From a virus, in the UHGV virus genome UHGV-0107614: a DNA stretch of 16,935 nucleotides. The stretch is one strand, 5' to 3'. Of the stretch, positions 9,001 through 12,000 are shown one piece after another. How positions within the stretch are numbered: position 1 is the first letter of the stretch; each line of letters opens with the position of its first letter. A program made the position numbers.

Positions 9001-12000
9001 CGACACAATTCTCCGGTATATGCAGCGTGTTGTGAGAAATTCCCGCAACCCTGAATTTATGAATGAAGTTAAAGACGCCTGCCTTAAAAAGCAGGCATTT
9101 TGCTTTGAGGCACCGGATGGTTTTCTGGTGCTGCGTTCTGTGCTCAGTGACGACGGTATCCCTTATGTTCTGGTGTTGCTGGGTGTGTGTACGGGGAGTG
9201 CCGGTGTTGAGCGTTATCTGCCGGAGGTGAAGACATTAACCCGTCTGGCTGGCGGACGCTGGGCTGAATTCCACACGGCAAGGCGGGGATTTATCCGGCT
9301 GGGAAAACGTCTGGGCTTTGAGCGAATGCCGGATGATGAGGATGGCTTCATGGTGTTCAGGATAGCGGTCTGACTGCCACTGTATTCATTATCGTGTGTA
9401 AACCAATTGCAATTCACATTCTGACCCTGCCCCGGCAGGGTTTTTTGTTATCCAGGGGGCCATAATGGGCGGAAAAAAAGGCGGTGGTGATACCAAAGTA
9501 AAACCAACAGCAGCGCAAATAGCACAGGAAGAAGTGGCCTGGAAAGGGTGGCAGGATTATCAAAAAATCCTCCGCCCGGCTGAAGATAACTTCATGGAAA
9601 AGGTCGATGACCTGAACAGTGAGCAGCAGTACGACAATATTGCTGGCACCACAAATCTGGGGTATCAGAAACAGTTTGGCGAAGCACGGAAGGAGCTGGC
9701 GGGTAATCTTGCTCAGTCCGGTGTTGACCCGTCCAGTGGTCGCTTTAACGCGGTAATGAATGCGAACCAGAGTGATCAGGTAACCGGGCAGATTGACACA
9801 ACCACACGGGGGCAGGTAAGTATGTTGCCGGGCTACAGGATGTTGCGGCTCTCGGTTCCGGTCAGAAGGCAGATGCGTTACAGAGTTTTAACTCCTTGGC
9901 TGACAGCAGTCTGGCAAAAGCCAAATCGGATGCACAGGCGGCGTTTACGAAACAACAGGGGCGAGCTTCTCTTGTTGGCGCTGGTCTGGGAGCTGTAGGT
10001 GCGTACGCGATGCATAAGGCTGGCGGTAACGGAGGTGGTGGCGGCGCTAAAACGCCAGGCACCGGCGCTAATGCTATTCAGCATCAGGCTCAGAACTGGA
10101 GACTGTAATTATGGAGTATGGCAAATACGAAACTCTCGCAAGGGCTGGTTATTCAGGCGCAGCCCGCCCACAGGGTGACTGGCAGACATCCGCCGCGCTG
10201 ACACGCCAGCAATACGACGACTGGCGAACCAGATATTTGCCCCGCGTGGCAAGGCTGGCTGACCTTGGTGAGAACAACAGCCTGATGAATGCACAGCTTG
10301 CCCGGGTAGGTGGCCTTGCCACTTCCAGTCTCCGTACAGCGCAGATGGCACAGGATAACCAGATGGCGAGATACGGGGTAAACCGTCCGGATAATCCCAA
10401 CAGTAACACGCTGGGTTTACGTAATGCACTGGCAATTGCTGGCGCGAAAAATGGTATACGGGAAGCAGAGCAGGATCGCCAGATGAACATACTGACTGGT
10501 GCTTCTGCACCTGCAAGACAGCAACTGAGTGTTGGTGGACAACTGGTGTCAGGGTAAGGGGAACGATATGGGATACGGTTTACTGGATATTGCGAATCAG
10601 TCACGTCGAGAGGCATTACAGGGAATAAGTGACGCCGACAGGCGACGTGAAGAAATTGAGGCTGCTAACAAGCAGATGGCGGCGCAACAGAAAGCGCAGA
10701 ACAAGCAGAATATCGGTACGGGCATTGGTACGGGGGCGGCTATGGGCGCTGCCGTTGGTGGTCTCCCCGGTGCGGCTATTGGTGCTGTCATAGGTGGTCT
10801 TGCTGGCTCGTTGTTTTAAGGAGTGGTGAATGAGCGGATTTGCACAGGGGTTACTTGCCGGATTCAGCACGGTTGACCAGGCAATGACCCGTCGTAAGGA
10901 GCTTGGTTTGCGAGAAGCACAGCTTGCTCAGCAACAGAAAAATAACGAGCGAGATTTTGAGTTTGCGCAGTCGCAGTTTGAACATAATAAAAACGTTGAT
11001 CAGCGTGACTTTGATTACAAAGCCAAAGTTGATGACCGTGATTATGCGCTTAAAGAACGTGAATTTAACGCCAACCAGAATTACCGGAATGCGTCGCTGG
11101 GTATGGAGCAGCAGCGACTCCGGATGCAGAAATACAACCAGCGATGGCTTGAGTATAACGATATGCTGGCGCGCGATCAGCCTGTGATGGCGGCGCTTGG
11201 AAAGGCTGTGGATGCTGGCGATCGGGATGCAGCAATGCGTCTTTACGGCCAGTTGTCAGAGGGTAATCCGCTGAGGCTGATGGCGAATGATGGCTATGTA
11301 GCGAAAGCGGGTCAGGCCGTGAACAACCTGCAAAAAATCTTTGATGACAAGCCGGACAGGGCTATCGCTTCACTTAATACGCCGGAGAATCTTGATGTCC
11401 TTTCCGGGGTGTTTGGCCCGGAACTGCAACAGCGTATTGGCATGCCCGATTCAACCGGGAAAAAGACGATAAAAGAGGCCAGGATTGGCAGTATCGTACC
11501 GGCGCAGCAGGAAGGGTACGTACTTATTGGCCTTGATCTCACATACAGCGATGGCTCCACCGCGCATAAACCTGTAACAGAATACGGCAGTGCACATCCT
11601 GATGATCAAACCGTGCTGGCGGTGCCTGTTGATAAGGCTGTTGAGCTTGTCAGGGATCGCAGTAAATTCGCGGAAATTTCGAAAAATTTCGGCTATTTCA
11701 CGCCGAAGCAGCAGGGACTTTCTCTGGCGAAACTTCAGGAAGGAGCCAGCAGTGTAGCGGCGGAAGCGATCAAGAACGGCGGGAATGCTCAGGCGGCGGT
11801 GGATGAGTATTACGCTGCAACTGGTTCACCGCAACATCAGCAGAAAATTCAGCAGCAAAAAATTCAACAAGGGATTACCAGTTGGGCGGGTGATGATCCG
11901 GATAAGCAGGCATTCGCCAGAGAAGTTGCTTCCCGTCAGCCAGAAATGCTGGAGCCTCAGAATCAGAAATTGCTGGAGAACGGGTATGCGAATTTTCTCC

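Follow-up and report, generated by a model that had tools for sequence, protein, structure and literature searches.

The closest described counterparts of the gene examined here are Sp5 ORF76 (ECs1238), 933W L0130 and phi24B gp51 (PHROG 611). We matched the 218-aa protein to Sp5 ORF76 through the supplementary table and the primers of Mondal et al. 2016 (PMC5155283); the published ORF76 primer, TGGAGACTGTAATTATGGAG, corresponds to positions 10091–10110 of the DNA analysed here. An in-frame deletion mutant of Sp5 ORF76 still forms plaques and yields lysogens from concentrated lysates only, and the authors suggest a role for ORF76 in efficient infection and/or lysogenisation (PMC5155283). Downstream of ORF76, ORF79 (421 aa) and ORF80 (2,793 aa) are essential for Sp5 tail formation (PMC5155283).

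For phi24B, a 2026 preprint proposes that the giant protein gp47 is an encapsidated ejection protein, and the proteome file that goes with it lists gp51, the ORF76 homologue, among the virion proteins detected by mass spectrometry (10.64898/2026.04.10.717836). The main text, in the portion available, makes no mention of gp51 (10.64898/2026.04.10.717836). Specifically, the phi24B virion peptide GQVSQADKYVAGLQDVAALGSGQK spans in a single frame the site that is deleted in our sequence (10.64898/2026.04.10.717836), and thereby provides direct protein-level evidence for the intact reading. The intact protein can be regarded as a putative internal or ejection-type component of the virion, which would act together with the homologues of gp50, gp48 and gp47.

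In function, the family is analogous to the internal or ejection proteins of podoviruses (P22 gp7, gp20 and gp16; T7 gp14, gp15 and gp16), in that a small gene belongs to an operon with a giant virion protein, its product is found in virions, and this product is predicted to have an all-helical structure and, at its C-terminus, a hydrophobic segment rich in glycine. The P22 and T7 proteins have no detectable sequence similarity to the family, however, and we do not claim membership for it. The 933W protein L0130 matches phrog_611 over residues 1–218 (E = 2.5e-120), the annotation of which is 'unknown function', and a weak match to phrog_8003 carries the label 'virion structural protein'. With the intact protein as query, Pfam returned nothing significant and only a sub-threshold match to EcsC, while a sequence search of the PDB gave a best E-value of 0.036, with no significant match. 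The AlphaFold2 model computed from a 40-sequence alignment is all-helical but poor and unreliable (pLDDT 41.6, pTM 0.25).

Damaged prophages provide the other comparison. A study of the 'defective prophage pool' of O157 Sakai reportedly found small inactivating deletions in defective lambdoid prophages. Like the defective lambdoid prophages of E. coli, which have small frame-breaking deletions in late genes and are otherwise well preserved, the prophage described here has lesions of this type, two of them in one operon. Unlike the O157 Sakai prophages, it comes from an uncultured, low-coverage metagenome contig and is known from the assembly alone.

The window, that is, the whole stretch of 16,935 nt analysed here, is an entire metaSPAdes contig (NODE_726_length_16935_cov_3.079680, ENA ERZ1309371), which we located by exact look-up of the 177-aa product of the broken gene. 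Its k-mer coverage is ~3x, so that very few reads stand behind each position; a literature search for ENA ERZ1309371 returned nothing. The contig represents the late (virion) region of a Shiga-toxin-phage-like prophage of E. coli, a 933W-like, short-tailed member of the subfamily Sepvirinae. The region 9400–10200 matches 186 phage records and, in the E. coli collection, 421 records from 420 genomes, in both cases at 80–97% identity. Over the whole window, the nearest relatives are stx-unlinked prophages of commensal strains (UCPROB-001, 97.5%; G1/2, G6/7 and G8, 96%). An Rfam scan of the whole window gave zero matches.

The gene order is of the 933W type, with tail fibre, DUF4376, YadA-like gene, L0124 and L0125 homologues, Lom, hok/gef and L0129, followed by L0130, L0131, L0132, L0133 and the giant L0134. 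Around the gene of interest, the window and Sp5, 933W and phi24B are alike, having Lom, hok/gef and the L0129 homologue upstream and L0131–L0133 and the giant L0134 downstream. The gene thus occupies the same position, between the L0129-like gene and the block formed by L0131, L0132, L0133 and the giant gene, in 933W, 2015C-3121, GER2, UCPROB-001 and the contig. The coordinates of the features are collected in the table.

Table. Features of the broken gene and of its surroundings in the window (positions numbered from the first nucleotide of the window).
Feature	Position	Strand	Evidence
Terminator-like hairpin and T run, directly upstream of the RBS (AGGGGG) and ATG of the broken gene	9423..9450	+	Consensus scan only
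Disrupted homologue of 933W L0130 / Sp5 ORF76 (ECs1238) / phi24B gp51	9465..10108	+	DNA alignment to four intact genes, tblastn, PHROG, synteny
Predicted truncated product, 177 aa (118 native and 59 out-of-frame residues)	9465..9998	+	ORF list, translation
G5 run, same length as in intact homologues; last bases lie within the upstream direct-repeat copy	9808..9812	+	Sequence, alignment
Deletion junction; between 9816 and 9817, 13 bp (TATCGCAGGCAGA) have been lost	9816..9819	+	Pairwise and multiple alignments
Native C-terminal coding part (from K123 on), shifted to the −1 frame and lacking its own start	9819..10108	+	ORF list, translation, tblastn
TTG ORF, 70 aa, a mechanical fragment of the native C-terminal part	9896..10108	+	ORF list
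Intact downstream gene, L0131 / ORF77 / gp50 homologue	10111..10557	+	Sequence, gene calls, comparison with UCPROB-001
Giant LPD38 / MuF-type virion protein gene, Sp5 ORF80 / phi24B gp47 homologue, split	12164..16935	+	Alignment, annotation of relatives

The broken gene is orthologous to the Sp5, 933W and phi24B genes, with ~95–98% DNA identity outside the gap; unlike them, it lacks 13 bp and is unable to make the 218-aa protein. It measures 644 nt, versus the 657 nt of the single ORF (218 aa) found in 933W, GER2, E. coli 2015C-3121 and UCPROB-001. Read from the ATG at 9465, frame 0 is protein-like (MGGKKGGGDTKVKPTAAQ...IDTTTRGQV) and then continues out of frame (SMLPGYRMLRLSVPVRRQMRY...) to a stop at 9996–9998. 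The −1 frame contains ...KYVAGLQDVAALGSGQK..., i.e. ...KYVAGLQDVAALGSGQKADALQSFNSLADSSLAK...QHQAQNWRL, and ends at the stop at 10106–10108. An earlier note on this DNA had reported a shift from frame 0 to the −1 frame at a GGGGG run (9808–9812). Both the run and the shift are present in the sequence, but the switch is to be placed at 9816–9819, 4–6 nt past the run. The two ORFs that it had taken from the ORF track, one of 177 aa (9465..9998) and one of 70 aa with a TTG start (9896..10108), are listed there as described.

The note had further read these ORFs as one gene in two pieces, a reading that conserved split ORFs in homologous loci would have contradicted; none of the full-length relatives examined is split. 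Every full-length homologue that we examined is one continuous ORF of ~205–226 aa, in clusters from Escherichia to Aeromonas (Enterobacterales and Aeromonas), whereas the window copy, split by the 13-bp deletion, does not have the single continuous ORF expected of a functional member. Used as a tblastn query against the window, the intact UCPROB-001 homologue matches with residues 1–124 in one frame (90%) and with residues 121–218 in another (96%). Both ORFs belong to a single gene, which is a pseudogene copy of the PHROG 611 / ORF76 / L0130 / gp51 family. The alternative frame is naturally open in intact versions of the gene, which accounts for the mis-extension of ORF 9465..9998; old Stx-phage records annotate this frame as a 118-aa 'hypothetical protein' (BAB87891.1 and others) starting at the methionine of MLPGYRML....

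Alignment to the intact genes of 933W, GER2, 2015C-3121 and UCPROB-001 reveals the nature of the break. The intact genes read ...ACACGGGGGCAGG TATCGCAGGCAGA TAAGTATGTT..., versus ...ACACGGGGGCAGG TAAGTATGTT... in the window, and the G5 run is identical in the window and in all four of them. The missing G that the earlier note had held responsible is thus not missing; instead, 13 bases are absent downstream of the run. In the intact genes, the sequence spanning the site (...CAGGTATCGCAGGCAGATAAG...) is read as T-R-G-Q-V-S-Q-A-D-K-Y-V-A-G-L-Q, within an ancestral 218-aa product that reads ...TTRGQVSQADKYVAGLQ.... The window has lost the codons for S119–D122 (Ser-Gln-Ala-Asp) and the first base of that for K123. 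The deletion site lies in the most conserved stretch of the family, R-x-Q-x-S-Q-x-D-K-Y-x-A-G-L-Q-D, which is indel-free, and a gap of four codons at this site occurs in none of the 40 aligned homologues (38–82% identity). The calculation that one extra G would give a continuous 214-aa product is right as arithmetic (644 nt + 1 = 214 codons), and the frame would be restored, but the resulting ...TTRGAGKYVAGLQ... is not the ancestral sequence: with the extra G, four residues of the most conserved motif are still missing and two are wrong.

What is missing corresponds exactly to one period of a 12-nt direct repeat that is imperfect, CGGGGGCAGGTA / CGCAGGCAGATA. By direct comparison, the two copies are offset by 13 nt and match at 9 of 12 positions; the longest exact block is only 5 nt, too short for the automatic repeat finder to pick up. 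Strict microhomology at the junction amounts to 2 nt (TA, 9817–9818), leaving the placement of the deletion ambiguous within 9816–9819. Relative to the intact genes, the window therefore has a deletion that is not a multiple of three and that removes one unit of a short direct repeat, as expected of a slipped-strand deletion.

We judge it likely that a gene for a 218-aa virion protein has here been inactivated by a 13-bp deletion of the slipped-strand type, and that it is now a pseudogene in a recently inactivated, defective prophage. We infer that the deletion is present in the DNA of the organism and not just in the assembly, and replication slippage is its most likely origin. In such slipped-strand mispairing, a nascent strand having copied the first repeat would re-pair with the second, skipping 13 nt; the G run belongs to the first repeat copy and has kept its own length. 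Against this origin speak the shortness of the strict microhomology, only 2 nt, and a mismatch that the slipped intermediate would require in the retained repeat copy.

As 13 is not divisible by three, translation would move into the open alternative frame and end at 9998, 110 nt before the native stop. The predicted 177-aa product would be without both the SQxDKYxAGLQD motif and the hydrophobic, glycine-rich segment at the C-terminus, and it is the loss of these two elements that makes the gene a pseudogene. To judge from the arrangement of the two genes, translational coupling to the gene at 10111 may also be lost, because the ATG of that gene starts only 2 nt past the native stop.

A second frame-breaking deletion is located inside the giant gene. 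Compared with UCPROB-001, 25 bp are missing after 14438; up to 14440 the gene is read in frame 2 (99.1% identity), and the rest of it, as far as the contig end, in frame 1 (99.6%). The 25-bp deletion has weak microhomology only (CG). If this lesion is real, the phenotype of the Sp5 ORF80 knockout would predict heads that are filled with DNA but lack functional tails, and an absence of plaques. Together, the 13-bp and 25-bp lesions point to a recently inactivated, defective prophage. The remaining genes with a UCPROB-001 counterpart are all full length; twelve have 95–100% protein identity, and the YadA-type gene has only 43%. In the broken gene itself, there are zero private point substitutions relative to known alleles. 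Given the well-preserved flanks and the lack of private substitutions, both lesions must be either very recent or not real.

The deletion allele is private to this contig among the collections searched. A 40-mer centred on the junction has no match by megablast in 5,426 complete E. coli genomes or in 50,697 phage records, while the intact 53-mer with its G5 run, used as a positive control, matches 466 places in 416 E. coli genomes. A 30-mer, a 23-mer and a degenerate 21-mer across the junction are likewise absent from the one-genome-per-species collection, from IMG/VR and from JGI metagenome contigs, and the search for the exact 177-aa product returned no record beyond the ERZ1309371 contig. 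As observed, then, the deletion is present in this contig and in no other, the relatives are intact as a single ORF, and the intact protein is virion-associated.

The main alternative is that the 13-bp and 25-bp deletions are artefacts of sequencing, library preparation or assembly, for example of template switching by a polymerase during amplification, taken over into a contig that few reads support, and that the real gene is intact and encodes 218 aa. We consider this unlikely, though a serious contender. In its favour are the low k-mer coverage, a junction unique across all collections searched and flanks that are 99–100% identical to functional relatives and free of decay, and template switching in vitro also favours short direct repeats like the one at the junction; the lack of private substitutions is as compatible with an artefact as with a very recent mutation. 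On the other hand, deletions of 13 or 25 nt are rare in short-read chemistry. The repeats (at most 12 nt, and imperfect) are far below any k, and for a de Bruijn assembler to create such a junction, at least one read must contain it. That two independent artefacts should both have prevailed in the consensus of one 17-kb contig is improbable, and E. coli prophages frequently carry small inactivating deletions.

Loss of a single base from the G run, whether by mutation from G6 to G5 or by a homopolymer miscall, would be compatible with the window if the remaining difference were a natural in-frame 12-bp allele. In favour of such a loss, a 1-nt deletion would produce just this shifted frame, MAFFT can also place the gap as 1 + 12, and G runs shortened from G5 to G4 do exist in other records. 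We rejected this two-event alignment, the site being indel-free across the family. Parsimony favours a single 13-bp event over two, the intact genes carry G5 like the window, the four-codon gap is absent from the aligned homologues, and a natural intact 214-aa allele without SQAD and with a G6 run has not been found so far. We therefore give a one-base loss very little credence.

Alleles in which G5 has become G4 are on record, in CP027572.1 and in Logan SRR27492615. They resemble the window in affecting the same gene, in entering the same frame and in having a very similar tail (...RYRRQISMLPGYRML...); they differ in having lost one G and kept the 13 bp, whereas the window has kept G5 and lost the 13 bp. 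RefSeq complete E. coli genomes do not contain G4, which was seen only in CP027572.1 and in Logan contigs. Long-read homopolymer errors are the probable source of the G4 alleles, since CP027572.1 has many fragmented genes nearby and none of these alleles occurs in the RefSeq complete genomes.

There is also a very slim chance that the deletion is real and that low-level −1 slippage of the Gly-tRNA on G GGG rescues a 214-aa fusion, with some ORF76-type function kept; in a more modest version, the prophage would be selectively disarmed in its DNA-ejection operon and would retain its cargo (Lom, hok/gef and the YadA-like adhesin). A Gly-tRNA on GGG at 9810–9812 could re-pair perfectly one base back, after which the −1 frame is open to the native stop. 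However, G5 runs are too short for efficient slippage, and the fused product would remain without the conserved residues. The junction peptide expected from −1 slippage is TTRGAGKYVAG, i.e. GAGK / YVAGLQDVAALGSGQK after ...IDTTTR.

Least probable of all is that the break is tolerated or used as such, with a −1 slip on G GGG (9809–9812) giving the fused 214 aa by programmed or compensatory frameshifting or by phase variation of the G run: the homologues are single ORFs that require no frameshift and do not conserve a two-frame architecture, the zero-frame codons ACA CGG GGG CAG give the heptamer A CGG GGG and not X XXY YYZ, the segment 9813–9900 folds with −24.8 kcal/mol versus a shuffle mean of −24.0 (z −0.29) and so offers no stimulatory structure, and the run is G5 both in the window and in the in-frame state, invariant in 416 genomes. 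On these grounds, we rejected both a programmed −1 frameshift (single-ORF relatives, non-canonical heptamer, no stimulatory structure) and a phase-variable G run (intact G5 53-mer in 416 genomes, G4 in 0 RefSeq complete E. coli genomes).

Taken as a whole, the locus is a pseudogene of an ordinary sort, and the prophage that contains it is probably defective; an assembly or library artefact is the main alternative. It is nothing new in kind, and its importance beyond annotation is little. The ORFs 9465..9998 and 9896..10108 are best annotated as one ORF76/L0130/gp51 pseudogene, the cause of which is a 13-bp deletion and not a homopolymer slip. The case also carries a caution: a homopolymer beside a frame break need not be its cause, and comparison with intact homologues settles the question at once. 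If both lesions are real, the prophage would be incapable of forming infectious particles, and the two lesions would bear only on judging whether the element is mobile.

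A second frame-breaking lesion lies in the giant LPD38/MuF-type gene (12164..16935, plus strand), the homologue of Sp5 ORF80 and phi24B gp47, where 25 bp (CGCGTACGCCGGATGAGAATCAGGC) are absent at 14438/14439. The gene reads in frame 2 up to 14440 and in frame 1 from there, with 99% identity on either side. The called ORF of 931 aa (12164..14959) is a truncated, mis-extended piece of the giant gene. Small indels relative to the UCPROB-001 prophage (−3, +3, +3, −2 and −1) are also clustered at 10985-11075 in the ORF79/L0133 homologue (10830..12095). These indels compensate to net zero, leaving an intact ORF of 421 aa with 95.7% identity to its UCPROB-001 counterpart, and this stretch is a locally divergent patch, not damage.

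Two records from outside the window carry a G4 copy of the broken gene (see table), with a product that reads ...TTTRGRYRRQISMLPGYRML.... These copies are probably homopolymer read errors, because many genes are fragmented near the copy in CP027572.1 and the G4 variant was found in none of the RefSeq complete E. coli genomes. The frame of the shifted tail (MLPGYRML..., from 9822 onward, plus strand) is also open in intact phages and is annotated in old Stx-phage records as a 118-aa hypothetical protein of its own (e.g. BAB87891.1 and NP_859122.1). That overlapping ORF was almost certainly annotated spuriously.

Features in the window and G4 copies in other records
Feature	Record	Coordinates	Strand	Remark
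YadA-anchor adhesin-like gene, 426 aa	window	1712-2992	+	
Terminator-like GC hairpin and T run	window	8566-8595	+	downstream of lom
Intact hok/gef-type toxin gene, 46 aa	window	8775-8915	+	between lom and L0129 homologue
Terminator-like GC hairpin and T run	window	9423-9450	+	directly upstream of broken gene
L0132 homologue, 83 aa	window	10568-10819	+	
G5-to-G4 copy of broken gene's homologue	CP027572.1 region (L006)	6001-6672		frameshift exactly at G run
G5-to-G4 copy of broken gene's homologue	Logan SRR27492615 contig (L007)	694-1416		frameshift exactly at G run

The YadA-anchor adhesin-like gene shares only 43% identity with the UCPROB-001 gene at the same position, although the prophages are otherwise 97.5% identical, and its flanks (about 1254-2707) align poorly to UCPROB-001; the gene is swapped cargo or a mosaic module. 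The hok/gef-type product is 100% identical to the UCPROB-001 copy, and an Rfam scan of the whole window returned no family, such as Sok antisense RNA, at its gathering score.

Terminator-like sites number 6 in the region, as compared with 1.9 expected from shuffles, and Q antitermination may allow transcription to pass the two putative terminators listed in the table. The L0132 homologue gives sub-threshold glycine-zipper matches in Pfam (YMGG-like, E 9e-6, obtained with the 933W orthologue as query), and a glycine-rich hydrophobic segment is likewise encoded at the C-terminal end of the broken gene. The L0132 homologue and the native product of the broken gene could both be membrane-inserting virion proteins.
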